Origin: Minisyncoccota bacterium | Lineage (GTDB): Bacteria > Patescibacteriota > Minisyncoccia > Phycocordibacterales > UBA9973 | Assembly: GCA_041664605.1 (NCBI GenBank) | Contig: JBAYKO010000001.1 | Coordinates: 83,586-147,585, forward strand | DNA: 64,000 nt | Direction: 5' to 3' | Shown: in pieces, positions 2,091-62,555 of the stretch | How positions within the stretch are numbered: the stretch's first letter is position 1 | How the letters are laid out: the number at the start of each line of letters is the position of its first letter | Made by a program: the position numbers and the translations under genes | Notes under the pieces: generated by a model | Databases searched by the model: none | The model's input: the letters and a program-made list of their open reading frames with translations, nothing else | Told to the model about the DNA's origin: nothing

Positions 2091-3167
2091 ATGGCAAAAG
2101 ACTACTACAAATTATTAGAAATAGAAAAAGGCGCTAATAAAGAAGAAATTAAAAAGGCTTTTCATAAGTTGGCTCACAAGTATCACCCTGATAAAAAGGG
2201 TGGAAATGAGGCCAAATTTAAGGAAATTAACGAGGCTTATCAAATCCTTTCAGATGACAAAAAACGTGCCGAATATGACAGATTTGGGACAACTGGAGGG
2301 GCTTCAGGCTTTCAAGGTGGTGGTTTTGGTGGCTTTCAAGGAGGTTTTGACCAAGGTGGTTTTCAGGACTTTGATTTTGGTAATTTAAACGACATTTTTT
2401 CAGAATTCTTTACTGGTGGAATGGGTAGAGGTAGGGCACAAGAAAGACGAGGTAGGGATATTTCTACCGAACTTAATATTTCTTTCTATGATTCAATTTT
2501 TGGAATAGAGAGAAATATTTTATTAACTAAGGTTTCAAAATGTGAGACTTGCAAAGGAAGTGGAGCTAAAACAGGTACTGATTTAAAAAAATGTTCTACT
2601 TGCAACGGACAAGGAAAAATTCACGAGACAAAAAGATCTTTTCTTGGTTCTTTTTCAACTGTAAAAATTTGTGAAGAGTGTGGAGGTACAGGCACAGTAC
2701 CAGTTGAAAAATGTTCTGATTGTAAAGGCAGTGGAATTGTAAAAAAACAAGAAGATATAAAAATCACAATTCCGGCTGGAATGAGAGATGGAGAAATGAT
2801 TAGAATTACTGGTGAAGGTGAAGCTATTTCAAAAGGTGCATCTGGTGATCTTTATATAAAAATAAATGTTGCGCCACATCCAACTTTCAAAAGAGAAGGG
2901 TCAAATTTGATAATGGATTTAAATTTAAAATTATCTGACGCTTTACTTGGAACAGAATATAAAATAAATACTTTGGACGGCGATATAAAAGTAAGAATCC
3001 CTGAAGGAGTTGGAATTGGAGAAGTTTTGAGAGTTAAAGAAAAAGGAGTGCCTGTTTCAAAAAACAAAAGAGGGGATTTGTTTATTAGGCTTCATATAAA
3101 AATACCAAATAAACTTTCTAAAAAAGCAAAAGAATTAGTTGAAAAAATGAAAGAAGAAGGCATCTAG
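2091..3167 (+). CDS. dnaJ: Chaperone DnaJ
   Basis: J-domain with HPD (AHKYHPDKK), G/F-rich linker, four CxxCxGxG zinc-finger repeats, C-terminal substrate-binding domain. Confidence 0.95.
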   Translation: MAKDYYKLLEIEKGANKEEIKKAFHKLAHKYHPDKKGGNEAKFKEINEAYQILSDDKKRAEYDRFGTTGGASGFQGGGFGGFQGGFDQGGFQDFDFGNLNDIFSEFFTGGMGRGRAQERRGRDISTELNISFYDSIFGIERNILLTKVSKCETCKGSGAKTGTDLKKCSTCNGQGKIHETKRSFLGSFSTVKICEECGGTGTVPVEKCSDCKGSGIVKKQEDIKITIPAGMRDGEMIRITGEGEAISKGASGDLYIKINVAPHPTFKREGSNLIMDLNLKLSDALLGTEYKINTLDGDIKVRIPEGVGIGEVLRVKEKGVPVSKNKRGDLFIRLHIKIPNKLSKKAKELVEKMKEEGI

Positions 3168-3177
3168 GAATTTTTAA

Positions 3178-3218
3178 AAGGTGCGACCTTAAAAGTTTTA
3201 CACCCAAGGTCGTTCCTT
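3178..3218 (+). repeat. 41-nt hairpin element copy 2, 10 nt after dnaJ stop
   Basis: 41/41 identical to copy 1. Confidence 0.7.
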
Positions 3219-3261
3219 AGAAAAATTTCTTTAAAATTATCAAATTTGTTAAAATATGGAC

Positions 3262-3398
3262 ATGTGAATCCTGTAGTAGATTTTCAAATTATTACAGGGT
3301 AATGATGAGATTTTAGGAACAATAAGTCGTAAAAAATATTAATCATAATTTAAAGTTTTAAATTCGTTTTTTAAAACAATTTGAAAATTCACTACGGG
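3262..3398 (+). repeat. Divergent member (F) of the start-codon-abutting inverted-repeat element family, flush against tyrS ATG
   Basis: Distal end ATGTGAATCCTGTAGTAGATTTT and proximal end AAAATTCACTACGGG form an imperfect 15-nt inverted repeat. The tyrS ATG follows immediately (GGG-ATG, as in the core family). Confidence 0.5.
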
Positions 3399-4649
3399 AT
3401 GAAATTATTATCAGAAGAATTGCAAAAAAGAGGTTTTATTTATCAGTTTTCAGAGGAAAAATTAGAAGATATAACAGATAAAGAAAAAAGAACTCTGTAT
3501 GTGGGTATTGATCCTACTGCTGATTCTCTGCACGTTGGTCATCTTGTTGCACTTTTAATGTTGCGACATTTTCAAAGCTACGGACATAAAATTATTATTA
3601 TTGTTGGTGGTGCAACTGGAATGATTGGTGACCCATCAGGGAAAAGCAAAGAAAGAAATTTACTTGATAATAAAACTCTTAAGAAAAATGTAAAAGGAAT
3701 AAAAGCTCAAGTAAAGAGTATTCTTGGAAATTCAAATTTTACAATTACAAATAACAATGATTGGTTTAAAAAGATCAAGGTTTTAGATTTTCTTCGAGAT
3801 ACAGGAAAACACTTTACAATCAACGCTTTAATTAAGAGAGATTCTATTGAAAAAAGAATGACAGGGGATGAGGGGATTTCTTATACAGAATTTAGTTATG
3901 TGCTTTTGCAATCTTACGACTTCTTACATTTATTTAAAAAATATGGGTGCAATCTTCAGATTGGTGGATCTGATCAATGGGGGAATATTGTTTCGGGGAT
4001 AGATTTAATTAGAAAAGTTGAAGATAAAAAGGTTTATGGAATAACTTGTCCTTTAATAATTAATGAAGCCACGGGGGAGAAATTTGGAAAATCAGAAGGT
4101 GGAAATGTTTGGTTGTCGGCTGAGAGAACTTCGTCTTTTGCTTTCTTTCAATTCTGGCTAAACGTTGATGACAAGAGCGCAGTAAAATATCTAAAAATTT
4201 ATAGTCCGCTTTCTATCGAAAAAATAAATGGCATAGAAAATGATTTTATAAAAAATCCTGAAAATAGATTAGCTCAGAAATCTTTGGCTTATGAAATGAC
4301 TAAGCTTATTCATGGAGAACAATCAGCAATTGCTTCAAAAAAAGTCTCAGAAATATTATTTGAAAACAAGGAAATAGAAAATTTATCTCAAGAAGAAAAG
4401 AAACTTTTGACTTCTGAAATCAAAAGCGTTTCAGCTAAAATTGGAGATGGAATTAAAATTGCTGACGCTTTAGTTATGGCAGAACTTACTCAATCAAAAG
4501 GGGAAGCAGGGAGACTCTTGAAAGAAGGCGGAGTTTCTGTAAATAATGAAAAAGTAGACGAAGAATACATTATAACTTCCAAAGATTCAAAAAACGGAAT
4601 AATTTTGATAAAAAAAGGAAAGAAAAACTTTGCCTGTCTTTTGGTGTAA
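3399..4649 (+). CDS. tyrS: Tyrosyl-tRNA synthetase (class I), with C-terminal S4-like domain
   Basis: HIGH motif variant (SLHVGHL), KMSKS variant (KFGKSEG), GGSDQWGNI. The ORF-track start at 3381 is a TTG inside element F. The ATG at 3399 matches the start-codon placement of the other family copies. Confidence 0.9.
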   Translation: MKLLSEELQKRGFIYQFSEEKLEDITDKEKRTLYVGIDPTADSLHVGHLVALLMLRHFQSYGHKIIIIVGGATGMIGDPSGKSKERNLLDNKTLKKNVKGIKAQVKSILGNSNFTITNNNDWFKKIKVLDFLRDTGKHFTINALIKRDSIEKRMTGDEGISYTEFSYVLLQSYDFLHLFKKYGCNLQIGGSDQWGNIVSGIDLIRKVEDKKVYGITCPLIINEATGEKFGKSEGGNVWLSAERTSSFAFFQFWLNVDDKSAVKYLKIYSPLSIEKINGIENDFIKNPENRLAQKSLAYEMTKLIHGEQSAIASKKVSEILFENKEIENLSQEEKKLLTSEIKSVSAKIGDGIKIADALVMAELTQSKGEAGRLLKEGGVSVNNEKVDEEYIITSKDSKNGIILIKKGKKNFACLLV

Positions 4650-4770: not shown

Positions 4771-5103
4771 ATGGCAGAACTTAATTTACAGTTACCGAGA
4801 TGGTTTTACGATAAATGGATTTTGTTAAACAATAAAGATCCCTTGATCAAAGAATTAATAAATTTTGCTCTTATTTTTGAGCAAGATATGGTAATTAAAA
4901 CACAGAATCAAAAACCACTGGAAGCTTCAGAAAAATTGGAAATCGGTTTTTTGGAAAAATTGCGCAAATCTTATGTAGAATGGAAAGATTCTGCCTATGA
5001 AGTTTTTTTAGGACCAGATTCTTCAGAAATAGAGAAAGTAATTAAAAAATTTCGTGAACACTATAAAGAGTATGTTCTTTTTTTAGAAGCTGGTTCTCTT
5101 TGA
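4771..5103 (+). CDS. Hypothetical small protein (110 aa)
   Basis: C-terminal KKFREHYKEYVLFLE is paralogous to the C-terminus of ORF 5369-5551. Followed by a terminator. Confidence 0.5.
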   Translation: MAELNLQLPRWFYDKWILLNNKDPLIKELINFALIFEQDMVIKTQNQKPLEASEKLEIGFLEKLRKSYVEWKDSAYEVFLGPDSSEIEKVIKKFREHYKEYVLFLEAGSL

Positions 5104-5107
5104 TTTT

Positions 5108-5136
5108 AAAAAACCCCGCAATTGCGGGGTTTTTTA
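5108..5136 (+). terminator. Rho-independent terminator (CCCCGCAATTGCGGGG + T7)
   Basis: Stem 5114-5129. Same stem family recurs at 5573-5588, 8959-8974 and 20877-20896. Confidence 0.85.
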
Positions 5137-5368
5137 TTTTGTTTAGGTCTTATGTTTATTATTTAATGTGTTTAATTGACAAAACAAAGAGGTCTGATAA
5201 TCTTAAATTAGAAAAGTTTTTAAAAAATTATTATGAGTCAAATGAAGTTACCAGCTTTTTTGTCAATACAATTGTTGTCAAATTTGGATACATTTGCAAT
5301 ACATCTAAAAAATGTTGCAACTCAAATAGAAGAGGACAAACTTCTAAAAACTCCAAAACAAAAACCCC

Positions 5369-5551: not shown

Positions 5552-5565
5552 TCTTTTTGTTCTTC

Positions 5566-5594
5566 TTAAAATCCCCGCAATCGCGGGGTTTTTA
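5566..5594. terminator. Bidirectional terminator (CCCCGCAATCGCGGGG) between small ORF (+) and cysS (-)
   Basis: Stem 5573-5588 with T/A runs on both sides. Confidence 0.8.
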
Positions 5595-6920
5595 AATTTT
5601 AGTAATTCTAGGTCCAGATGGAGTATCTTCTATATTGTAACCAGCAGTAGCACTAATTTGGCGAAATCTATCAGCTTCTTCCCAGTTTTTTTCTTTACGA
5701 ACTATTTCTCTTGCTTCTACTAATTTTAAAATATCTTCTGGAATTTCTAAAGTTTCTTTTTCCAACAATTTAAAACCAAAAATTTGATCAATTATTTCGA
5801 TTGTTTTATATTTTCCCTCAGCATTCTCATCTCGTAAAAGTTCCCATAGTGAAGCCAATGCTTTGGGGGTGTTTAAATCTGAATTCATAGCTTCTTTAAA
5901 TTTGTCTAAATATTTTTCATTTATTTTTCCATCATTTTTTAAATCTTTAGAAATATTTTTTAGTCTGTTGTAGGAGTTTTGAGCATCGTCTAATGAATTT
6001 TTTGAAAAATCTGTTGGTTTCCTGTAGTGTGCCGATGTAACAAAATATCTTATAATTTCACCAGAATAACTTAGAAGTATGTCTCTTATTGTTTTAAAGT
6101 TTCCAAGGCTTTTACTCATTTTTATTCCATCGACATTTACCATTCCATTGTGAATCCAGAAATTTGCCATTTTTGCACCCCAAGCAGATTCACTTTGGGC
6201 AATCTCATCTTCATGGTGGGGAAAGATCAAATCTTGTCCACCTCCGTGAATGTCAAAAGGAATTCCCAGAATACTTTCAGACATAGCAGAACATTCTATA
6301 TGCCAACCTGGTCTACCTTTGCCAAATGGGGTATCCCATTCTGGTTCATTTGGTTTTGAAAATTTCCAAAGTACAAAATCTTCCTTATTCTTTTTTTCTC
6401 TATTTTCTAGAACCCGCGCACCAGATTTTAAATTTTCAATTTTTTGGTGGGACAGTTTTCCATATTCTTTGTATTTTGAAATATCAAAGTAAATTCCATC
6501 GTCTTTTATTGTATAAGCGTATTCTTTTTCAATAAGTAAAGTTACAAGATTTATCATTTGTTTGATATATTCTGTAGCTTTTGGTTCTACATCAGGTTTT
6601 TCTACTCCAATTTTCTCATAATCTTCAATATGAGCTTTTGTATTTTTTTCTGTTAAATCTTTTGTAGTCTCATGTAATTCGCGTGCTTTATCAATTATTT
6701 TGTCGTCAATATCAGTAATATTTGAAGCAAACATTACATCATAGCCTAGAAATCTTAAATATTTTCTTAAAATATCAAAAGTAATTTTCTGTCTTGCATG
6801 GCCTAAGTGGGGGACATCGTTTACTGTTGGTCCACAAACATACATTCTAACAGCACCTTCTTTTATGGGTTTAAATTCTTCTTCTTTTTTTGTGAGAGTG
6901 TTATAGAGTTTTAGAGACAT
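5592..6920 (-). CDS. cysS: Cysteinyl-tRNA synthetase
   Basis: HIGH (PHLGHAR), KMSKS (KMSKSLGN), CGPTVND zinc-site region. Confidence 0.93.
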   Translation of the reverse strand: MSLKLYNTLTKKEEEFKPIKEGAVRMYVCGPTVNDVPHLGHARQKITFDILRKYLRFLGYDVMFASNITDIDDKIIDKARELHETTKDLTEKNTKAHIEDYEKIGVEKPDVEPKATEYIKQMINLVTLLIEKEYAYTIKDDGIYFDISKYKEYGKLSHQKIENLKSGARVLENREKKNKEDFVLWKFSKPNEPEWDTPFGKGRPGWHIECSAMSESILGIPFDIHGGGQDLIFPHHEDEIAQSESAWGAKMANFWIHNGMVNVDGIKMSKSLGNFKTIRDILLSYSGEIIRYFVTSAHYRKPTDFSKNSLDDAQNSYNRLKNISKDLKNDGKINEKYLDKFKEAMNSDLNTPKALASLWELLRDENAEGKYKTIEIIDQIFGFKLLEKETLEIPEDILKLVEAREIVRKEKNWEEADRFRQISATAGYNIEDTPSGPRITKI

Positions 6921-8938: not shown

Positions 8939-8952
8939 TAAAAATATGATTT

Positions 8953-8984
8953 CAAAAACCCCGCAATTGTGGGGTTTTGTTTTG
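8953..8984 (+). terminator. Rho-independent terminator (CCCCGCAATTGTGGGG)
   Basis: Stem 8959-8974 plus T-run. Confidence 0.8.
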
Positions 8985-9046
8985 TATTGACAGAATGTAA
9001 TTTCTTGTGCTAATCTTTAGTCAGAAATATTTTAAATGTTATTTAG

Positions 9047-9341: not shown

Positions 9342-9842
9342 ATGCTATCGCGGAATTTGAGTATAGAAGACAAAATTTTAAAACTTTTATTTGAGCCAAA
9401 ATATCGATATAAGGGTATGTTTGTCAGTACACTCGGTTTACCAGCCGTTTTTAAAAACAAAAAACAATCTATTACTAATGCTATTTATCGACTAAAGAAA
9501 GAAAATTATATCTTAAAAGAAGATAAGTGTATTCGAATACTTCCTAGGGGGGTAAAATATATTGAGAATAAAAAAAGCCGGCTTTTAATTTTTAATTCAT
9601 TGTATAAAAAAGGAGCACCCAAGAACCTATTAATTATGTTTGATATTCCAGAGATCAAAAAAGCCGAAAGGGAATGGTTTCGTTTTCACTTACGGAAGTT
9701 CGATTATTATATGATTCAAAAAAGCGTTTGGATTGGTCCTTCACCTTTACCGAAAGATTTTTTAGATTATTTAAAAGAAATTAAACTTGAAGAATGTATA
9801 AAAACATTCAAACTAGCCAAATCATTTAATACTCAAACTTAG
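9342..9842 (+). CDS. PadR-like winged-helix N-domain fused to a Cas2-like (VapD/Cas2 fold) C-domain; hypothetical regulator/nuclease
   Basis: The N-terminal about 90 aa resembles PadR-type wHTH. The C-terminal LLIMFDIPE...REWFRFHLRKFDYYMIQKSVW matches the Cas2 beta1 (hhhYDI) and RxxhxKxLxxyGxRhQxSVF signature. Confidence 0.5.
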   Translation: MLSRNLSIEDKILKLLFEPKYRYKGMFVSTLGLPAVFKNKKQSITNAIYRLKKENYILKEDKCIRILPRGVKYIENKKSRLLIFNSLYKKGAPKNLLIMFDIPEIKKAEREWFRFHLRKFDYYMIQKSVWIGPSPLPKDFLDYLKEIKLEECIKTFKLAKSFNTQT

Positions 9843-9886: not shown

Positions 9887-10501
9887 TTATTGACGATTTT
9901 TTAATGCATTTTTTATTGTATCACTATCAGAATATTCAAGTTCTGTGCCAGTAGAAAGTCCACGTCCTAAACTTGAAATTTTAAAAGAATATTTTTCTTG
10001 AAGTGGTGATAACATTTTTCTTATATAGATATCTGTATGTTCGCCGTGAGGATTTAAAGACATTGCAATTATTATTTCTTTTAATCCATTTTCTTTCAAA
10101 TCCTTCTCTACTCTTTGTAACAATTCTCTAATGCGAATTCTTTTCTCTGTATCTTTTTCTGTGATTGGAACAAGTCCTCCTAATATAAAATAATTTCCAC
10201 CATAAGTTCCACTTTTTTTCATACTTTCATAATCAGCGTCTTTTTCAATAACCATAAGTAGTGATTTGTCTGTATTTTTTCCAATACATATTTCACAAAA
10301 TTCTCTATCAGGATATTCGAAGTGCTTAAAACACATTTTACATTGAGAAGTTTGTTTTTTTAATTCAGAAATTAGATGCGTGAGTTCACTCACATAATCT
10401 TTATTTGAGGATAAAAGAAAATAAACAAAACGCTTGGCTTGCCTTTCGCCAATTCCGGGGAATTTTGCAAAATATTGAGATAGTTTATCGATTGGATTCA
10501 C
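9887..10501 (-). CDS. recR: Recombination protein RecR
   Basis: HhH (FPGIGERQAKRF), C4 zinc finger (CKMCF...CEIC), Toprim domain. The ORF-track start at 10522 is a TTG inside the repeat element. A GTG at 10499-10501 directly follows the element, as in the other copies. Confidence 0.85.
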   Translation of the reverse strand: MNPIDKLSQYFAKFPGIGERQAKRFVYFLLSSNKDYVSELTHLISELKKQTSQCKMCFKHFEYPDREFCEICIGKNTDKSLLMVIEKDADYESMKKSGTYGGNYFILGGLVPITEKDTEKRIRIRELLQRVEKDLKENGLKEIIIAMSLNPHGEHTDIYIRKMLSPLQEKYSFKISSLGRGLSTGTELEYSDSDTIKNALKNRQ

Positions 10502-10645
10502 CCCATTAGAAATAGGAAACAATCAAACGACTGTTTGTTTGATTGTTTCCATAGCTTATTAATTGTTTTGATAAATTTATCGATTTCATTTTTTATATAA
10601 TTTTTATTTTAATATCTTAACTGATAGATTTCTAACGGGACTCAT
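10502..10645 (-). repeat. Start-codon-abutting inverted-repeat element, copy D (dnaB-recR spacer)
   Basis: Distal end CATGAGTCCCGTTAGAAATCT (rc of 10625-10645). Proximal end CCTATTTCTAATGGG sits immediately before the recR GTG. Internal sequence is about 80% identical to copy E. Confidence 0.75.
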
Positions 10646-10710
10646 GGCTGATTTTGTAAAATTCATTCTAAAGTTCTATAGAACTTTAGAATGAATGAAT
10701 TTATTTTCTT

Positions 10711-12633: not shown

Positions 12634-13638
12634 ATGGAAAACAAAGAAAAAATCGTTTTAACAGGGGATAGGCCAACAGGAAAGCTTCATTTGGGTCATT
12701 ATATTGGCGCCCTTATTCAAAGAGTTGAATTACAAAAGAAATATAAGCAATTTGTTATGGTGGCTGATGTTCAAGCCTTGACCGACAATGCTGATAACCC
12801 AGAAAAAGTTAGAACTAATACTTTTGAAGTTACATTAGACAATCTAGCTGTTGGAGTTGATCCATCAAAGACTACTTTTTTTATTCAATCTCAAATTCCC
12901 GAACTCGCAGAACTTACTGTTTATTTTCTAAATTTAGTAACACTAGCTCGATTAAAAAGAAATCCAACAGTTAAAGATGAAATGAAGCAGAAAGGTTTCG
13001 GTGAAGATGTGCCAGTTGGTTTTTTGTGTTATCCAATTAGCCAGGCATCGGACATTTTGTCTTTCAAAGGAAATTTAGTGCCGGTTGGAGAAGATCAAGT
13101 TCCTGTTATTGAGCAAACAAATGAAATTGCAGAAAAGTTTAATAGTTTTTATGGAGAAGTTTTTCAAAAAGCAGAACCTCTTTTAACAAAAACCTCCCGA
13201 CTTGTTGGCATAGATGGAAAAGGAAAGATGAGTAAATCATTAGACAATGCAATTTATCTAGCTGATTCATCTGAAGTGATTGAAGAAAAAGTTATGTCTA
13301 TGTACACAGACCCAGACCATATAAAAGTAGAAGACCCTGGTAAGATCGAAGGTAATGTTGTTTTCACTTACCTAGATGCATTTGATACAGATAAAAAGGG
13401 ATTGGAAGAGTTAAAAGAAAAATATCAGAAGGGTGGAGTAGGGGACGTTCTAATCAAAAAAAGATTAATTGGGGTACTGCTTGAAATTTTAAATCCGATT
13501 CGCGAAAAAAGAGAATATTTAGAAAAAGATCCAAAGTATGTAATGGATATTTTAGAAGAAGGAACAAAGAAAGCTAGGAAGGTTGTTCAAGATACGCTCA
13601 AGGAAGTAAAACAAGCAATGAAGTTAAATTATTTTTAA
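12634..13638 (+). CDS. trpS: Tryptophanyl-tRNA synthetase
   Basis: HIGH variant (KLHLGHY), KMSKS (KMSKSLDN). About 334 aa, class Ic. Confidence 0.92.
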   Translation: MENKEKIVLTGDRPTGKLHLGHYIGALIQRVELQKKYKQFVMVADVQALTDNADNPEKVRTNTFEVTLDNLAVGVDPSKTTFFIQSQIPELAELTVYFLNLVTLARLKRNPTVKDEMKQKGFGEDVPVGFLCYPISQASDILSFKGNLVPVGEDQVPVIEQTNEIAEKFNSFYGEVFQKAEPLLTKTSRLVGIDGKGKMSKSLDNAIYLADSSEVIEEKVMSMYTDPDHIKVEDPGKIEGNVVFTYLDAFDTDKKGLEELKEKYQKGGVGDVLIKKRLIGVLLEILNPIREKREYLEKDPKYVMDILEEGTKKARKVVQDTLKEVKQAMKLNYF

Positions 13639-13659
13639 TTTTTCTTTTTTAGTAAATCT

Positions 13660-14514
13660 ATGTCTATAAAAAATAAAATTATTTTTTTTGTAATATTTTT
13701 TGTCATTCTATTTGGATTGTATACTCCGAACATTTTTGCTCAAACAGAAAACACAACCCCGGTCAATATTGGGTTTGTCCCTGGTAATATTTGGTATTCA
13801 CAAGATCCTTTTATGGAGGGTGATTTAATTAAAATTTACACACTGGTTTTTAATAATGGTAAGAACTCTATTTCAGGCACAGTTGAATTCTATGATAAAA
13901 ATGTAATTTTAGGAGATAAAAAATTTACACTTAAAGCCGGAGAAATTTTGCCAATTTATGTTGACTGGAAGGTTACTGCGGGAGATCATACTATGTCCGC
14001 AAAAATAATTGATTCTAAGATGGTTGTAAATAATACAACTGAATCTATCGTTTTAAAATATAGTCAAACAGACGAAGATGAGAGATTTGTTCCAAAAATT
14101 ATTCCTGCGAGCGAAAAAATTACAGACCAAACTAATAAACAAATAGAAAAAGTTACAAATTTTGTTTCTGAAAATACCCCTGCGTCTATAAAAGAACCTG
14201 TTATTTCAACTACAAAAAGTATTGAAGCTTTTAGAACAGATACTGCAGAAAAATTAGCTACTCAAAAAGAATCAACCCAAAAAGAAATAGAAGCTGTCGA
14301 TGAAAAAAGAGCTGAACAGTTAAAGAGTAATGGACAAGTTGATACTAGTACCAAAATAGAAAAACCACTCAAATATATAAAACTTTTTTTAATTAGTTTG
14401 TTTGCGTTTATTTTTAAAACAAAAGTAATTTTTTATCTATTAGCTCTTACTATTATTTTTTTAATTTTCAGATTTATTTTTAAGAAAATTTTCAAAAAGA
14501 AAAATGGTAAATAA
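13660..14514 (+). CDS. Hypothetical secreted/membrane-anchored protein (signal peptide plus C-terminal TM)
   Basis: N-terminal hydrophobic signal, C-terminal TM. Confidence 0.5.
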   Translation: MSIKNKIIFFVIFFVILFGLYTPNIFAQTENTTPVNIGFVPGNIWYSQDPFMEGDLIKIYTLVFNNGKNSISGTVEFYDKNVILGDKKFTLKAGEILPIYVDWKVTAGDHTMSAKIIDSKMVVNNTTESIVLKYSQTDEDERFVPKIIPASEKITDQTNKQIEKVTNFVSENTPASIKEPVISTTKSIEAFRTDTAEKLATQKESTQKEIEAVDEKRAEQLKSNGQVDTSTKIEKPLKYIKLFLISLFAFIFKTKVIFYLLALTIIFLIFRFIFKKIFKKKNGK

Positions 14515-14785
14515 GAATAATACACTATTTAGGATTCTTGCTGTAATATTTTTATTCATAAGTGTGTTATTTTTTCCTATCTGGATGACAATCCCACTTG
14601 GGATTATTTTTCTTTTTGTTTTTAATAATTTTTATGAATTTATAATACTTTCTTTGTTTAATGACTTGCTATATGGTGTGGAAGAACCAAGATTTTTCAC
14701 TATAAAATTTGTAACATTTTTAATTTCTTTAATTTTGTTTTTTGTGGTAAAAATACTGAAAAAGAAGATAAAATTTTACAGATAA
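14504..14785 (+). CDS. Hypothetical small membrane protein (3 TM)
   Basis: Highly hydrophobic 93 aa. Confidence 0.45.
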   Translation: MVNKNNTLFRILAVIFLFISVLFFPIWMTIPLGIIFLFVFNNFYEFIILSLFNDLLYGVEEPRFFTIKFVTFLISLILFFVVKILKKKIKFYR

Positions 14786-14791
14786 AACATT

Positions 14792-14935
14792 ATGAGTCCC
14801 GCCCGAAATCAATCAGTTAATATATTTAAATAAAAATTAAAATTACAATGAAATCAATAAATTTTGGAAAACAATCAATAAATTACGGAAATGCCAAAAC
14901 AGCTACTTGTTTAGGCATTTCCTATTTCTAACGGG
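14792..14935 (+). repeat. Start-codon-abutting inverted-repeat element, copy E (upstream ORF-PBP2 spacer)
   Basis: Begins 6 nt after the upstream stop codon with ATGAGTCCCGCCCGAAAT (degenerate distal repeat). Ends CCTATTTCTAACGGG directly before the PBP2 ATG. Internal hairpin GGAAATGCC...GGCATTTCC. Confidence 0.75.
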
Positions 14936-16636
14936 ATGAGAATATTCAAGAAAAAAAGAAAAATCTTTGAGATTGCTCCAGATGAAATATTTTTAGATTC
15001 AAAAAATATACCCCAATTTAATACCCAACAGATGGAGGGTAAAATTGAAAAACCAATCTCTAAAAAAACAACTGCTTTCCTGTGGTTATTTTTTCTCATA
15101 GTTATAAGTATTTTTACTTGGAAAATTTCAGCACTTCAGCTTGTAAAAGGTGAGTATTATTTTAAAAAAAGCCAAGATAACAGTTTAAATAGAAAAATTA
15201 TCTTTGCTGATAGGGGAATAATTTATGACAGGAATAATGTAAGACTTGCATGGAATAGTGAAATAATGGGTGACACTGGAGATATTAGTGAGAAATTTTT
15301 ACTTAGATCATATATAAAATCTCCAGGGTTATCTCATGTACTAGGATATGTTAGCTACCCTAAAAAAGATAAATCGGGAAATTACTGGAGAGAAGTATTT
15401 ACTGGAAAAGATGGCGTTGAAAAAAAATACGACAATATTTTAAAAGGAGAAAATGGTGAAAAACTTTTAGAAAAAGATGCCCTTAATACTATTCAGTCTG
15501 AGAGCGTTGTTAATCCATCTAAAAATGGTGATAATGTTGTTTTAAGTATTGACTCAGGAGTTCAAACAAAACTTTTTGAAGCTATAAAAAGTCTAGCAGG
15601 ATCTTCTTCTTATGTTGGTGGAGGTGGGGTTTTAATGGACATAAATAATGGAGAAATTTTAGCTATTACGAGTTACCCAGAATATGATTCCGAAATTATG
15701 TCACTAGGCAGTGATTCAAATACAATTGGAGATTATCAAAAAAGTAGTAGAAAACCATTTTTAAACAGAGCTTTAAATGTCTATGCTCCTGGATCTATTG
15801 TAAAACCCTTTATTGCTATGGGGGCATTAAATGAGCAGGTCATTGATCCATTAAAAAAAATATTAAGCACTGGATCTATTTCAATTCCTAATCCATATTT
15901 TCCAGATAAGCCATCTATTTTTAAAGACTGGAAGGCTCATGGTTGGGTAGATATGCGTCGTGCACTTGCAGTATCTTCTGACGTTTATTTTTATGAAGTT
16001 GGAGGGGGATACAAAGATCAAAAAGGTTTAGGAATTGTAAACATAGATAAGTATATGAAAATGTTTATGGTGGGAGAAAAAACTGGAGTTGATTTATATG
16101 GAGAAAATGAAGGAGTAATACCAACCCCAGAATGGAAAGAATTGAATTTTAATGGTGACCCATGGAGGGTTGGAGATACTTATCATACCTCAATTGGGCA
16201 ATATGGATTTCAGGTTTCCCCAATTCAAATGGTGCGTGCTATTTCTGCTATAGCAAATGACGGCACCCTTGTTTCTCCTCATGTTGTTTTGGGAGATAAA
16301 AATTTTGAAAATAAAACTGAAAAAATTGAATTAAATACAAGTTATTTTGATATTGTAAAAGAGGGGATGAGAGGAGTCGTAATGCCAGGAGGAACAGCTA
16401 CAATGCTTGATGTTCCTTATGTTAAAGTGGCAGCTAAAACTGGTAGTGCCCAAGTTGGAATTTCAAAAAAAAATATGCACGCCTGGGTTATAGGATTTTT
16501 CCCTTATGAAAAACCAAGATATGCTTTTGCAGTTTTAATGGAAAGTGGGCCATCTCAAGGAGCATCGGGAGCTCAATATGTAATGAGACAAGTTCTTGAT
16601 TGGATGAGTATAAATGCTCCGGAATATTTCAAGTAA
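14936..16636 (+). CDS. Class B penicillin-binding protein (PBP2/FtsI-type transpeptidase)
   Basis: N-terminal TM and dimerisation domain. Transpeptidase motifs SxxK (GSIVKPF), SSD (SxN), KTGS (KTGSAQ). Confidence 0.88.
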   Translation: MRIFKKKRKIFEIAPDEIFLDSKNIPQFNTQQMEGKIEKPISKKTTAFLWLFFLIVISIFTWKISALQLVKGEYYFKKSQDNSLNRKIIFADRGIIYDRNNVRLAWNSEIMGDTGDISEKFLLRSYIKSPGLSHVLGYVSYPKKDKSGNYWREVFTGKDGVEKKYDNILKGENGEKLLEKDALNTIQSESVVNPSKNGDNVVLSIDSGVQTKLFEAIKSLAGSSSYVGGGGVLMDINNGEILAITSYPEYDSEIMSLGSDSNTIGDYQKSSRKPFLNRALNVYAPGSIVKPFIAMGALNEQVIDPLKKILSTGSISIPNPYFPDKPSIFKDWKAHGWVDMRRALAVSSDVYFYEVGGGYKDQKGLGIVNIDKYMKMFMVGEKTGVDLYGENEGVIPTPEWKELNFNGDPWRVGDTYHTSIGQYGFQVSPIQMVRAISAIANDGTLVSPHVVLGDKNFENKTEKIELNTSYFDIVKEGMRGVVMPGGTATMLDVPYVKVAAKTGSAQVGISKKNMHAWVIGFFPYEKPRYAFAVLMESGPSQGASGAQYVMRQVLDWMSINAPEYFK

Positions 16637-24572: not shown

Positions 24573-25667
24573 ATGACAAAAAAAATAGATAAAGTTTTTT
24601 TCTTTACAGTAATTACCCTTGTTATTTTAGGGGTATTTATTTTTATATCTGCATCTCTTGGAGTGCTTGCAAAAAACCAAACAAAATTTTATTCAATATT
24701 ATTTAGTCAATTGGTATTAGGGCTTTGCGGGGGAACATTAGCATTAATTTTATTTTCTAAAATTGATTATAAATTTTGGAGAAAATATTCTTTTTATATT
24801 TTTTTAGTATCAATTGCTTTTACTTTACTTGTCTTTGTTCCTGGTATTGGTTTTAGTCACGGTGGAGCAAAAAGATGGATATCGCTTGGTTTTACAACTT
24901 TTCAACCTGTAGAATTTTTAAAGATAGGTTTTATTATGTATTTTGCGGCTTGGCTTTCTTGGGTTAAAAATAAAGTTCAGGATTTTAAGTTTAGTATTTT
25001 ACCAACAACAATTTTACTCGGTGTTGTTGCTTTAGTTTTATTAAAACAACCAGACACAAAAAGTGTTATTTTACTTGTTTTAGTTTCTTGTGGAATGCTT
25101 TTAATTTCTGGAGCAAAAATCAGATATTTAATTTTAACTTTTATTATAGCTGTAATGGCACTAGGGGGATTAATATTATTTAGGCCATATTTAGCGGAAA
25201 GAATGAAAACTTTTGTTGATCCTAGTAGGGATCCGTCCGGTTCTTCTTATCAACTCCAACAATCTTTGATTGCTGTCGGTTCAGGTGGGATGTTTGGTAG
25301 AGGTTTTGGACAAAGTATCCAAAAGTACAGTTATCTCCCAGAACCTCAAGGTGACTCAATTTTCGCTGTTATAGGGGAAGAATTTGGCTTTGTTGGTTCA
25401 GTTTTATTTATTATATTACTACTAGTTTTTGCCTTACGAGGTTTAAAAATAGCTAATAAGTCTCCTGACACCTTCAGTAGACTTTTTGTTGCTGGAATTG
25501 TTATACTTATAACAGCTCAGTCTTTTATTCACATAGCCTGTGCAATTGGAGTTTTTCCTTTAACTGGTTTACCTTTAGTTTTTGTTAGCCAAGGAGGAAC
25601 ATCACTTTTATTATCTCTCGCTGCAATAGGAATTATTTTAAATATTTCTAAATTTCAAAAGAGATAA
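24573..25667 (+). CDS. ftsW: SEDS-family peptidoglycan glycosyltransferase FtsW/RodA
   Basis: 10 TM helices; GAKRWISLGFTTFQPVEFLKIGF; GDSIFAVIGEEFGF. Confidence 0.88.
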   Translation: MTKKIDKVFFFTVITLVILGVFIFISASLGVLAKNQTKFYSILFSQLVLGLCGGTLALILFSKIDYKFWRKYSFYIFLVSIAFTLLVFVPGIGFSHGGAKRWISLGFTTFQPVEFLKIGFIMYFAAWLSWVKNKVQDFKFSILPTTILLGVVALVLLKQPDTKSVILLVLVSCGMLLISGAKIRYLILTFIIAVMALGGLILFRPYLAERMKTFVDPSRDPSGSSYQLQQSLIAVGSGGMFGRGFGQSIQKYSYLPEPQGDSIFAVIGEEFGFVGSVLFIILLLVFALRGLKIANKSPDTFSRLFVAGIVILITAQSFIHIACAIGVFPLTGLPLVFVSQGGTSLLLSLAAIGIILNISKFQKR

Positions 25668-35099: not shown

Positions 35100-35660
35100 T
35101 TAGTAATAATATCCTCCCTTTACTTTAAATTTCTTTTTATCAAAAGTTACTACCATATACCAGTTCCAGGATACGGTCTTATCATCTTTTCCCACGAAAT
35201 CAAACCATATTCTTGGAAATATTTCTTTATTAATCCACCTTTCTGGTTCTTCTGACGCAGGATCGACAATAATTATATTTTTATCAGTTACATTTACAAC
35301 AACACTATAATGATCATCATTTTCATCAAACCAACCAATAATAACCGGTAATTTTTCTTCACGAATAAAATATTCCAATTCTTCTATTGATCCGTTTTCT
35401 TTTACATAAACAAAGCCACCAATTTCTTTTATGGCCTGGATCATTCCTTCATGCTCTGTCCCCTCACCTCTTCCCATTCCTGAAATACTACAAGCAACAT
35501 TAGCTAACTGTTCTTCTGTGTGATTTTTACCAAAATATGAAAGTAAAATTTTTAAAGAGGCTGGACCACAAAGTCCCATTGATTGTTGAAAAGGTTCCAC
35601 TTTAATTTTCTGCTCATCTCTGTTTACTGTATTTAATTTTTTCTTTTTCTTCCACATCAT
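35100..35660 (-). CDS. Papain-like cysteine peptidase, C39-like (Peptidase_C39_2-type) domain protein
   Basis: Catalytic Cys in GLCGPASLKILLSYFG and His in DDHYSVVVNV, with Asp/Asn downstream. Confidence 0.6.
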   Translation of the reverse strand: MMWKKKKKLNTVNRDEQKIKVEPFQQSMGLCGPASLKILLSYFGKNHTEEQLANVACSISGMGRGEGTEHEGMIQAIKEIGGFVYVKENGSIEELEYFIREEKLPVIIGWFDENDDHYSVVVNVTDKNIIIVDPASEEPERWINKEIFPRIWFDFVGKDDKTVSWNWYMVVTFDKKKFKVKGGYYY

Positions 35661-35763
35661 CCCATTAGAAATAGTTTATTTAAAACAAACTATATTTTTA
35701 CTCTGATAATTTAATCGCCTTTATTTTTAAAATTTTATTCCGCTAATTTCTAACGGGACAAGT
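35661..35763 (-). repeat. Start-codon-abutting inverted-repeat element, copy B (upstream of C39-like peptidase)
   Basis: Distal CTTGTCCCGTTAGAAATTAG (lacks the ATG). Proximal hairpin ATAGTTT...AAACTAT followed by TTTCTAATGGG then ATGATG. Confidence 0.7.
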
Positions 35764-47462: not shown

Positions 47463-47795
47463 TTACTCCCAGAAAATTAAGACTAAAGAAAATACTCCTA
47501 GTATCATTCCAATTATTTGAATTTTATTTGTCGTCTCACTGTAAAAATAAAGACCAATAATCAAAGCTAAGATAGCGGAAGCGATGGAAAAAATAATCGC
47601 TCCACGGGCAAGACCTGAGCCAGTTTTAATACTCCAAAGCCAAAAAATATTAGCAATAATATAGCCTGAAATTGCCAAGACCCAAAAATACCAATGACCT
47701 TTAAGTGAATACTCTTTAGCTAAAATATCAGCAATACTTTCAAATATTATTAAAAAAATTAAAGGAATTATCCAAAACATTTTATTTGATTCCAT
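47463..47795 (-). CDS. SMR/DMT-superfamily 4-TM small membrane transporter
   Basis: Four TM helices with conserved TM1 glutamate (IFESIADILAKEYS), EmrE-like. 110 aa. Confidence 0.55.
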   Translation of the reverse strand: MESNKMFWIIPLIFLIIFESIADILAKEYSLKGHWYFWVLAISGYIIANIFWLWSIKTGSGLARGAIIFSIASAILALIIGLYFYSETTNKIQIIGMILGVFSLVLIFWE

Positions 47796-48645
47796 TAAAC
47801 AATTTTAATCTGGCTTCGACAACTTTTTCTATCTCTTCAACTGATTTTTTTTCTAATTTATATGGCGCAATTTCTTCAGGGTTCTCTTTTAGTGATTCTT
47901 CAAGTCCTTTTCTAAAAGCCACTCTTATTTCTGTGTTGATATGGATTATTGAAATTCCGGCCTCAATTGCTTTTATAAAATCTTCATCTGTTATTCCAGA
48001 TCCACCATGTAAAACAAGTGGTACTCCACACTCAACCCTGATTTGTTTTATTCTTTCAATATTCAAGCTCGGATTTGGCATATCTTTAAACATTCCATGA
48101 ATATTACCCACTGACGGGGAAAACAAATCCACACCAGTTTCTTCCACATATTTTTTTGCATCTTCGGGTGTAGTAAAAGTCTCAGGAGAAATACCTTCTG
48201 GAATTTTATCTAACATTTTTGATGAAGTCCCAATATAACCAAGTTCTCCTTCAACTAATATGTTTGGGTTGATACTTTTTGCATACAGAACACATTGTTT
48301 TGTAATTTTGATATTTTCTTCAATTGGTAATTTTGCTCCATCAAAAATAACTGCATCATAACCAGCATCGATTACTGCTTTTACAGATTCAAAACTATAG
48401 TGATGGTCGGCATTTAAAAATATTGGATAATTATCTTTCTCCCGAATTTCTTTAATTAAAGCTACTGCTTCATTTTTTCCAAAAAATTCTTCCTCTCCTT
48501 CTGAAAGTCCAATAATCACTGGTAAATTTAATTTTTTCGCCACTTGATAGATTCCATGCAAGGCTTCTAAGTTTGAAATATTAAAATGTCCAATGGCTTT
48601 ATGGTTTTTATCAGCTTCCAATATATACTCTTTTAAAGTTTTCAT
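47782..48645 (-). CDS. fba: Class II fructose-bisphosphate aldolase
   Basis: GHFN, LNADHH, LVLHGGSG zinc/phosphate-binding motifs. Confidence 0.85.
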   Translation of the reverse strand: MKTLKEYILEADKNHKAIGHFNISNLEALHGIYQVAKKLNLPVIIGLSEGEEEFFGKNEAVALIKEIREKDNYPIFLNADHHYSFESVKAVIDAGYDAVIFDGAKLPIEENIKITKQCVLYAKSINPNILVEGELGYIGTSSKMLDKIPEGISPETFTTPEDAKKYVEETGVDLFSPSVGNIHGMFKDMPNPSLNIERIKQIRVECGVPLVLHGGSGITDEDFIKAIEAGISIIHINTEIRVAFRKGLEESLKENPEEIAPYKLEKKSVEEIEKVVEARLKLFNGIK

Positions 48646-58441: not shown

Positions 58442-58465
58442 TGCCTGAAATTTCATATTTTAAAA

Positions 58466-58494
58466 AACCACCCAATTGGGTGGTTTTTTATTTA
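58466..58494 (+). terminator. Rho-independent terminator (CCACCCAATTGGGTGG + T-run)
   Basis: Stem 58468-58483. Same family at 59099-59114. Confidence 0.8.
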
Positions 58495-58553
58495 CTTGAC
58501 AGTTATATCTTAAAATAGTATCCTATCAACAGACATTTAGTAAAGACAAAAAA

Positions 58554-62102: not shown

Positions 62103-62555
62103 TTAATTTAATAAAGCATCGACAATTTCTTTAATAATTTGCCCATCTGCCTTCCCTTTTAAATCTTTCATAACCCCCGCCATTAACATCCCGGCTTTAC
62201 TTTTATCTGTAATACCAAGCTCTTCTTTTTTGGCTTTTATAATTTTTTCAACTTCATCACGATTCATCATTTCTGGTAAATATTTTTCAAGATATGGAAG
62301 TTCATCTCTCTCTTTCTCTGCCAAATCTTCACGGTTCCCTTTTGTGAATTGTTCTATTGAATCTTTTCTTTGTTTTACTAATCTTGAAATAACGGGAATC
62401 GCTTCTTCATCAGAAAGCTCCTCGCTTGGCTTTCTTTTTTTGGCTACGAGCTCGTTTGTAAATGATGATAAGATATTTCTTAAAACCTCTAATCGCAAAG
62501 ATTCCTTTTTTATCATTGCATCTTTTATTTCGTCTCTTATTTGTTGGTGTAACAT
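62103..62555 (-). CDS. GatB/YqeY-domain protein
   Basis: IRDEIKDAMIKKESLRLEVLRNIL...YLPEMMNRDEVEKII, YqeY family. Confidence 0.8.
   Translation of the reverse strand: MLHQQIRDEIKDAMIKKESLRLEVLRNILSSFTNELVAKKRKPSEELSDEEAIPVISRLVKQRKDSIEQFTKGNREDLAEKERDELPYLEKYLPEMMNRDEVEKIIKAKKEELGITDKSKAGMLMAGVMKDLKGKADGQIIKEIVDALLN

Follow-up and report, generated by a model that had tools for sequence, protein, structure and literature searches.

The gene for a PBP2-type transpeptidase in the 64,000-nucleotide stretch of Minisyncoccota DNA analysed here (contig JBAYKO010000001.1; the whole stretch is called the window below) starts on the last base of a short palindromic element, copy E, which comparison with other copies and with empty sites shows to be, at the sequence level, a transposon-like insertion on the PBP2 start codon. 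We favour the reading, with a probability of about 70%, that copy E is a non-autonomous insertion resembling a MITE (a transposable element of the miniature inverted-repeat type), that it belongs to a family widespread in Patescibacteria, and that copies located on start codons are tolerated as translationally transparent. The element is a MITE by every sequence criterion except that of a known parent transposase. An earlier note on this DNA had implied a leader RNA tuned to PBP2, a view that we abandon: the structure belongs to a mobile element, as indicated by the target duplication, the empty PBP2 and RecR sites and the 105 unrelated families found downstream. The object is better described as a putative new family of start-codon-associated mobile palindromes.

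Copy E spans positions 14792-14938 of the forward strand (first letters ATGAGTCCCG) and follows the TAA stop of a 93-residue open reading frame (ORF; stop at 14783-14785, no Pfam match) after the six-base spacer aacatt, as the earlier note had it. It opens with ATGAG (14792-14796), the 5' target copy and old PBP2 start codon, the TGAG of which (14793-14796) is repeated at 14937-14940. The 5' terminal inverted repeat, TCCCGCCCGAAAT (14797-14809), is degenerate: a change of TTA to CCC breaks three of its 13 pairs. The 3' terminal inverted repeat, ATTTCTAACGGGA (14924-14936), encloses a TAA at 14929-14931, and the 3' end of the element (...CCTATTTCTAACGGG) leads straight into the PBP2 ATG at 14936. 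The copy had been said to end on this ATG, which holds in that the last arm base is its A, the arm itself reaching 14936, one base beyond the 14935 first assigned. Between the arms lie two short ORFs, the first of 13 codons running from the old start codon (MSPARNQSVNIFK and a stop, 14792-14833) and the second of 27 codons ending at the TAA of the 3' arm (MKSINFGKQSINYGNAKTATCLGISYF and a stop, 14848-14931), with a gap of 14 nt from the stop of the first to the start of the second. A sub-terminal hairpin with a GGAAA/TTTCC foot (14887-14922; the 'pre-start hairpin' of the earlier note) adjoins the closing stem and falls within the second ORF. The host gene (14936-16636, forward strand) encodes a protein with Transpeptidase and PBP_dimer domains.

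Copy E is one of six copies in the window, five of them canonical and found by a relaxed arm search, and one with variant arms. The element is 97-140 nt long and its terminal inverted repeats, TCCCGTTAGAAAT...ATTTCTAACGGGA, are 13 nt each; in the canonical copies the arm TCCCGTTAGAAAT lies near the 5' end and its complement ATTTCTAAYGGGR at the 3' end, with 73-114 nt between them. The arm motif GAGTCCCGNNNGAAAT occurs five times in the window, against 0.54 expected. All six copies adjoin a start codon, and in the five canonical ones this codon begins with the final base of the arm (genes for a C39 peptidase, ribosomal protein L9, a release factor, RecR and PBP2). In copies E and B the element fills the whole intercistronic gap.

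To look beyond the window, we scanned one genome per GTDB species with the pattern TCCCGTTAGAA-N71-121-TTCTAAYGGGR (end motifs TCCCGTTAGAA...TTCTAACGGGA; a start codon was not required). This exact-arm scan gave at least 120 loci, and all statistics below on copies outside the window refer to the copies in the matches listed. About 90% of the matches listed are from Patescibacteria of many classes (Nomura-, Kaiser-, Jorgensen-, Zambryski-, Yanofsky-, Doudna-, Levy- and Kerfeldbacteria, Kazan and Saccharibacteria), with a few from metagenome-assembled genomes (MAGs) of Omnitrophota or Planctomycetota, and the GC content of the carrier genomes ranges from about 30% to 55%. Judged from these matches, the family is present in over a hundred species of the ultra-small Patescibacteria (the candidate phyla radiation, CPR). 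Tolerating two mismatches per arm core gave 157 elements in the listed loci. In 122 of them an ATG, GTG or TTG that opens a frame of 60 codons or more adjoins the element in one orientation only, and in none is this so in both; copy E, with three changes in its 5' arm, lies outside this 157/122 set. The elements are 77-140 nt long and contain ORFs of at most 45 codons without a Pfam match (eight element-encoded peptides were compared with Pfam, and no family was matched). The scan pattern had no match in 2.9 million viral contigs. Rfam 15 recognized two tRNAs only in the whole window at the gathering threshold, and nothing credible in copies E and B at E below 5. In the literature searched, the arm sequences turn up only in unrelated primers, and no paper joins Saccharibacteria or Patescibacteria with MITEs; no description of the family was found in Rfam, Pfam or the searchable literature.

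Evidence for mobility comes from the flanking duplication. A 4-nt direct repeat brackets 75 of the 122 copies perfectly and 12 more with three matches out of four, compared with 2/122 for the next four nucleotides taken as a control. The third and fourth bases of the repeat vary between copies and agree within a copy (TGAA in 48, TGAG in 11, TGGA in nine, and also TGCG, TGGG and TGTA), and other repeats flank the copies that lie off start codons (TATG, CATA, TAAA, TTTA and CTTA). The length of the repeat is 3-5 nt, with ATGG| and ATGA| as examples of three and ATGCAA| of five. The terminal arm pair covaries (T..A or C..G), so that the terminal base is part of the element; together with the duplicated TG it rebuilds an ATG or a GTG. 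We saw by eye no covariation between the flanking repeat and arm positions 12-13. The genes downstream of the 122 copies fall into 105 clusters. Tandem copies have one TGAA in common (CGGGA-TGAA-TCCCG), and tandem or nested copies with a single 4-nt spacer were noted at loci L012 (7673-7896), L096 (2572-2706), L112 (6503-6721), L118, L080 (3873-3900), L076 and L088. The MAG FK_Sedi_B_Bin.322 has at least five copies within about 16 kb, and the near-identity of at least three of these suggests that the family was recently active there.

Empty sites point in the same direction. The element is absent at 23 of 23 PBP2 orthologues (50-60% identity), and at sites with synteny of the small upstream ORF the PBP2 start lies 0-6 nt past the stop of that ORF, in some cases with a single start of the ATGAG type. 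The relative L145 reads TAGATACA-ATGAGATTT where the window reads TAAAACATT-ATGAG[element]ATGAGAATA. Likewise, two relatives have dnaB and recR 3 nt apart, a recR start of ATGAAC and no element, compared with ATGAG[element]GTGAAT in the window. Other assemblies with this PBP2 are of the same strain, identical, and carry the same element, so that polymorphism within the species was not seen. At the same dnaB-recR junction, a perfect 17-bp palindrome followed by a T run (10655-10705, reverse strand) lies between the dnaB stop (10711) and copy D; because the two genes are only 3 nt apart in relatives, this terminator-like hairpin is probably a second lineage-specific insertion.

Copy D, before recR, was the partner of copy E in the earlier note. 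It occupies 10499-10645 on the reverse strand, with the 5' ATGAG at 10645-10641, the 5' arm at 10640-10628 and the 3' arm at 10513-10501; inside it are an ORF 2 at 10589-10506 and a hairpin at 10550-10515. Its 3' arm ends in G, giving a GTG start at 10501 that is confirmed by RecR homologues of 204 residues. The two copies were said to be homologous over their whole length, and they do align without a gap from end to end, with 111 of 147 positions identical and with all the shared core segments then quoted; the inner 113 nt score 49, against 0.8 +/- 5.3 and a maximum of 24 in 1000 shuffles. The hairpins are also as described, with differing stems, an AAACAG core and a 3' arm ending in TTTCC. 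That of copy D is GGAAACAATCAAAC/GTTTGATTGTTTCC (14 bp, 10550-10515) and that of copy E is GGAAATGCC/GGCATTTCC plus AAACA/TGTTT (14887-14922); each is 36 nt long, on a common GGAAA/TTTCC foot, and exceeds the 18-nt hairpin common in the family by 18 nt, a multiple of three. Four adjacent pairs are doubly substituted with pairing kept (C-G to U-A, A-U to G-C, A-U to C-G and U-A to C-G), and the next pair is lost in copy E (A.A). The RNA fold z-scores are -6.6 for copy D and -2.8 for copy E. In ORF 2 the differences are spread evenly over codon positions 1, 2 and 3 (7, 7 and 9), which argues that the peptide is not conserved; what appears to have been kept is the openness of the frame. The two copies, on opposite strands and separated by 4 kb, each run in the direction of their own gene, and this rules out a replication-directed orientation of the IS200/IS605 kind.

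Whether the hairpin reflects a selected structure was then asked of the family as a whole. All 13 closing pairs are present in 103 of 121 minimum-free-energy folds, and 1417 of the 1452 cells at arm positions 2-13 are Watson-Crick, a figure that is partly ascertained since the scan required exact arms. Position 12 is AU in 58 copies, GC in 50 and CG in six, and position 13 is UA in 71, CG in 35 and AU in seven. In five window copies the arms are predicted to form a closing stem with a second helix stacked on top (RNA z-scores of -2.8 to -6.6, better than shuffles). Across one large subfamily the next seven bases pair over the whole element, with a conserved 4-nt bulge on the 3' side (ATCT, ACCT or TCCT); at fixed geometry, all seven pairs of this long-range helix form in 29 of 60 copies, compared with nine expected when partners are swapped, and two positions covary. 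Another subfamily, which includes window copies C, D and E, has a local hairpin in place of this helix. Ten distinct 7-bp hairpins at the same position are 100% paired, with four of the seven pairs changing on both sides and two G.U intermediates; 0 of 500 shuffles reached their covariation score, although these sequences were chosen because they form hairpins, so that the score is supporting evidence and not a blind test.

With more copies aligned, the arms, the second helix and the hairpin all covary, so that the refuting outcome named in the earlier note, a larger alignment lacking covariation, did not arise. The hairpin is thus shown to be a family-wide sub-terminal module within a conserved fold of the forward strand of the element, and the covariation of hairpin and long-range helix across the family indicates that this fold is selected. 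The claim of a selected structure, first based on copies D and E, is strengthened by the additional copies; taken alone, the D/E pair is explicable by a single template-switch or recombination event. Since both DNA strands fold about as well as the RNA, covariation cannot separate RNA from single-stranded DNA. The closing stem has 23 G.U pairs against five A.C on the sense strand, which favours selection on one folding strand, with the caveat that a single subfamily supplies six of the 11 G.U pairs at arm position 5 and about half of all G.U cases. A hammerhead-like core (AUGAGUCCCG...CGAAAU) is superficial only, without a stem II or an Rfam match.

Besides its fold, the element has a reading frame that tends to stay open. 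The 3' arm reads TTC TAA CGG GAT G, which places a stop 4 nt before the host ATG. The frame of this TAA has a stop density of 0.043, compared with 0.083 in the host frame, 0.074 in the third frame and 0.062-0.064 antisense; the difference (bootstrap p < 0.001) held in 1000 of 1000 bootstraps and also with one copy per locus. Of 121 copies, 75 keep this frame open for 19 codons or more, compared with a mean of 32 and a maximum of 46 in shuffles. Element lengths divisible by three are favoured, with 58 copies in that class and 31 and 32 in the other two. Among 94 ORFs starting at the 5' duplicated ATG, 24 end at the arm TAA (shuffle mean 5.1, maximum 11), seven end at a TGA overlapping the host ATG, and none fuses in frame with the host. 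Of the copies that stop early, 30 of 63 have an internal ATG that opens an ORF of at least 15 codons to the arm TAA. A TGA flank (ATGA overlap, second frame) is present in 87 of 121 copies. The asymmetric interior (the side of the bulge or hairpin) runs with the gene in 60 copies and opposite to it in five, and the reversed copies have short open frames. A conserved leader peptide (MSPVRN...) was considered and rejected: the frame at the 5' arm shifts with the length of the repeat (ATGN, ATGNN or ATGNNN before TCCCG), the peptides are unrelated between subfamilies, and the differences between copies D and E are spread over codon positions as described above.

The host genome is without Shine-Dalgarno motifs, and many of its genes have a TATAAT-like box 6-8 nt before the ATG (for example at the starts at 9342, 17660 and 23055, and for the reverse-strand genes at 47782-48645 and 62103-62555). 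This suggests widespread leaderless mRNAs in this Nomurabacteria-like genome. Across the family, 41 of the 94 copies with a 5' ATG have a -10-like box at positions -14 to -11 relative to it, compared with 28% of control genes in the same loci (odds ratio 2.0, p = 0.002).

From these observations we infer a translational pass-through, that is, termination followed by reinitiation. Ribosomes would begin on the old start codon, which would be a leaderless one in the many copies where it follows a -10 box by 6-8 nt, and would read the element in its stop-poor frame, copies D and E requiring a relay of two ORFs. This reading would melt the stem that otherwise buries the host AUG; the ribosomes would terminate either at the arm UAA, which precedes the host AUG by 4 nt, or at an AUGA that overlaps it, and would then reinitiate on the host gene. 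A pass-through of this kind predicts a closed host frame, an open TAA frame, a length biased to multiples of three and a fixed orientation, and selection for it may be the source of the strong orientation bias. The inverted repeats are presumably kept for a transposase. The scheme fits the two models by which translational coupling is currently explained, one of RNA unfolding and one of ribosome scanning (PMC12548453).

Several observations weigh against the reading of a MITE-like, translationally transparent insertion. No arm pairs 0.17-4 kb apart were seen in 868 kb of sequence flanking the fetched loci, and no cognate transposase or full-length insertion sequence with these ends was found on plasmids (one chance match) or in viral contigs. 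A repeat of 3-5 nt that is nevertheless anchored on ATG is unusual for a fixed staggered cut, and single-strand selection is not required by plain cut-and-paste transposition. In addition, if a preference for ATGRR were the only factor, about 40% of copies would be expected at gene starts (34 of the ATGRR sites in the window are gene starts, against 59 intergenic ones), compared with 78% observed, which implies either more specific targeting or strong selection against other intergenic sites. As to translation, about one in three of the copies bearing a 5' ATG lack an ORF of 15 or more codons that runs to the arm stop, copies D and E are of the relay type and need reinitiation across a 14-nt gap, and the -10 box and the open frame are not correlated (Fisher p = 0.8-1.0). 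Collection by exact arms biases arm conservation upward, as a partly ascertained property. Finally, one subclass has a conserved ACTTG or ACCTG 5' flank (ACTTG|TCCCG) in place of the duplicated ATGNN. This 'ACTTG' subclass comprises L003 (4051), L018, L019, L035, L046 (4812), L065, L098, L101, L106 (5101), L113 and window copy A (35763); its members often follow a TATAAT-like box or what is left of another 3' arm (L101, L019), and most of them have the G.U variant TAATGGGA in the 3' arm.

We may wonder at this stage whether the insertion itself is directed. It is conceivable, though we would not count on it, that the family seeks the start codons of leaderless genes, through the melted promoter open complex or a 5'-terminal AUG, and inserts in a fixed orientation with a ribosome relay (open frame, arm stop and rebuilt start), being moved by a conserved enzyme that acts on a folded single strand.

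Much of the structural evidence would also suit a cis-regulatory leader RNA (a riboswitch, a thermosensor or a protein-binding element), in which the closing stem hides the start codon until a signal arrives. The fold is stable and better than shuffles in five copies, the closing stem ends exactly on the start codon, the G.U excess is on the sense strand, the interior is co-oriented with the gene and the helices covary. Such a leader is nevertheless improbable in our view, because the genes downstream are unrelated (105 clusters for 122 copies), the element is missing from orthologous PBP2 and RecR loci and is flanked by target duplications, and no core is conserved beyond the stems, the interior being AT-rich and variable, and no Rfam family matches; moreover, a leader leaves the frame-specific avoidance of stops unexplained.

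A folded single-stranded DNA recombination site of the attC or REPIN kind, handled by a tyrosine or HUH recombinase and selected at the DNA level only, would account for the strand asymmetry, with its conserved 4-nt bulge on the 3' side and G.T tolerated on one strand, for the attC-like size and variable apical region, for the strong orientation bias relative to the target, and for the fact that both DNA strands fold; the tandem junctions CGGGA-TGAA-TCCCG also resemble recombinase core sites. We regard it as quite unlikely. Flanking duplications of variable sequence are not made by attC or HUH mechanisms, the GTT/AAC boxes are in reverse order compared with attC, the copies are dispersed at housekeeping genes and do not form cassette arrays, no recurrent recombinase gene was seen in the 868 kb of flanks, which were inspected for arm pairs only, and the open reading frame is unexplained.

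There is very little to recommend RNA processing, in which a double-strand-specific RNase would cut the AUG-ending stem and release a leaderless downstream mRNA from a longer transcript. The genome without Shine-Dalgarno motifs and its many leaderless-looking genes would agree with it, as would a stem of 13-20 bp that ends at the A of AUG and the filling of the intercistronic gap by copies E and B; yet RNase III cuts within helices and not at their base, many copies lie directly behind a -10 box, where processing is needless, and the duplicated ATGNN, the avoidance of stops and the lack of in-frame fusions are unexplained. Template switching can yield perfect hairpin complementarity without selection. 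We give hardly any credence, however, to the view that copies D and E hold no selected structure, their hairpin tops being mutational (intra-strand template switching or copy exchange) and their similarity reflecting recent descent: it is possible for the D/E pair alone, where eight differences are clustered in four adjacent pairs beside a broken neighbour, one event is more parsimonious than eight substitutions and the ORF 2 peptide is not conserved, but not for the family-wide pattern, in which single pairs change stepwise through G.U intermediates at the same hairpin position, two other helices covary too and differing hairpins occupy the same place in dozens of species.

The favoured reading, a MITE-like insertion passed by the ribosome, has its closest functional parallel in the interspersed repetitive units of mycobacteria (MIRUs), which are mobile, lie at start codons and have an internal ORF coupled to the host gene (Supply et al. 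1997, summarised in PMC12548453). Both are short mobile repeats at start codons in lineages rich in leaderless genes, with a host-oriented internal ORF running up to the host start; coupling would thereby hand translation on and keep the insertion nearly harmless. For the present element, such a coupling is favoured by the frame-specific scarcity of stops, by the 31 of 94 predicted ORFs from the 5' ATG that end at the TAA (+4) or at ATGA, and by the lack of in-frame fusions. On the other hand, MIRUs are direct, often tandem units without terminal inverted repeats, have a -4 overlap (ATGA) and are limited to mycobacteria, whereas the present element folds back through inverted ends of 13 nt, is flanked by a target duplication of 3-5 nt, mostly occurs once per site and is found across Patescibacteria, with its main stop 4 nt before the start (TAA CGGG ATG); MIRUs are set apart here by their description. 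The principle is therefore known from MIRUs, and the family is structurally different and in a different superphylum.

In structure, the element resembles bacterial MITEs such as Neisseria Correia/NEMIS, pneumococcal RUP and MITEAba12 (PMC6382973) in its size of about 100-150 bp, its inverted repeats and its short target duplication, as well as in its many dispersed intergenic copies, the lack of a transposase gene, the foldback RNA and the effects on the expression of neighbours. Known MITEs use TA or AT-rich targets anywhere in intergenic DNA and in either orientation, whereas about 78% of the present copies are on a start codon that is rebuilt with their own terminal base, with an orientation of 60 against five and an open frame. 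We would therefore call the element a MITE in structure, with a presumed MIRU-like function. Rickettsia palindromic elements reportedly lie in frame within ORFs and are translated in the host protein. They share the palindromic form, the mobility, the size of about 100-150 bp, the compatibility with translation and the tolerated contact with coding sequence in a reduced genome; they differ in that the present family has 0/94 in-frame fusions, an ORF that stops before the host start and its highest stop density in the host frame (0.083). Integron attC sites are likewise about 60-140 nt long, with imperfect inverted ends that carry GTT/AAC boxes, extrahelical bases on one strand, a variable apex, a structure better kept than the sequence and a fixed orientation relative to an ORF downstream. 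The present element has GTTAGAA at its 5' end and TTCTAAC at its 3' end (R'' RYYYAAC 5' and R' GTTRRRY 3' in attC), its ends are conserved in sequence and flanked by duplications, and it is dispersed at core genes with no cassette array beside an integrase. Identity with attC was rejected on the reversed box order and on the single copies before PBP2, recR, rplI and the release-factor gene.

The remaining window copies are as follows. Copy C precedes the release-factor gene (42314-42441, reverse strand; arms at 42436-42424 and 42328-42316) and has ATGAGT on both flanks. Together with its gene, which has PCRF and RF-1 domains, it covers 41342-42441 on the reverse strand; an in-frame ATG at 42409 inside the copy keeps the host frame open, and ORF callers add 31 residues. 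A prfB-like programmed frameshift at CTT TAG in the hairpin of copy C was rejected, as there is no upstream ORF in that frame. Copy B precedes the gene for ribosomal protein L9 (31887-32015, reverse strand; arms at 32010-31998 and 31901-31889), with ATGAA on both flanks and an internal ORF reading MKSNIININNLINQMRELIAIYF and a stop. Copy A precedes the C39 peptidase gene (35658-35763, reverse strand; arms at 35758-35746 and 35672-35660) and has the 5' flank of the 'ACTTG' class. The sixth copy (3265-3403, forward strand; element at 3269-3399) has the variant arms TCCTGTAGTAGATTTTC...GAAAATTCACTACGGGA, which also read TCCTGTAGTAG.../...CACTACGGGA, with TGAA at 3265-3268 and 3400-3403, and ends on the ATG (3399) of an ORF of 416 residues. 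On its 5' side a start codon with an immediate stop (ATG TGA) lies 6 nt past a TAAAAT box. Its diverged arms imply that the family has arm variants missed by the exact-arm scan.

Some further observations concern other copies and other parts of the window. In the non-Patescibacteria copies L013, L041, L058 and L099 (from MAGs of Omnitrophota, Planctomycetota and a 'delta proteobacterium') the ends are mostly CCCCG...CGGGG and the repeats TTTA/TAAA. These copies lie off start codons; they could reflect horizontal spread with another target preference, or mis-binned contigs. Upstream of PBP2, in the region 12634-14785 (forward strand), an ORF of 334 residues at the head of the cluster matches tRNA-synt_1b (the Trp/Tyr-tRNA synthetase class) and not MreB, and the ORFs of 284 and 93 residues between it and PBP2 have no Pfam match, so that MreC and MreD labels would be unverified. 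A different 89-nt intergenic repeat (...AATTTTTAAAAGGTGCGACCTTAAAAGTTTTACACCCAAGGTCGTTCC...) occurs at 1011-1099 and 3140-3228 with 84% identity, and a piece related to it precedes the gene at 24573. Eight sites in the window have terminator-like hairpins of one family, AAAAACCCCGCAATTGCGGGGTTTTTT, whose stems covary (for example 5099-5140, 5558-5599, 8944-8988 and 58453-58497); these look like ordinary intrinsic terminators.

The genomes of CPR/Patescibacteria are tiny and had been regarded as poor in mobile DNA. In this window a single family appears to sit at the start of about one gene in ten, and its ends are near-identical across genomes of 30% to 55% GC. The elements create spurious upstream ATGs and small ORFs that shift start calls: the listed start of recR is a TTG at 10522, and that of the release-factor gene is the ATG at 42409. 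Insertion patterns could also mark strains in CPR populations. Should the family indeed seek start codons, it would be a translation-transparent parasite of leaderless genes across a bacterial superphylum. If the pass-through is true, the family would be the second case, after MIRUs, of selfish DNA that sits on a start codon without silencing the gene, and its copies would form a natural series of termination-reinitiation sites without Shine-Dalgarno motifs, usable for the study of 70S scanning and leaderless initiation.

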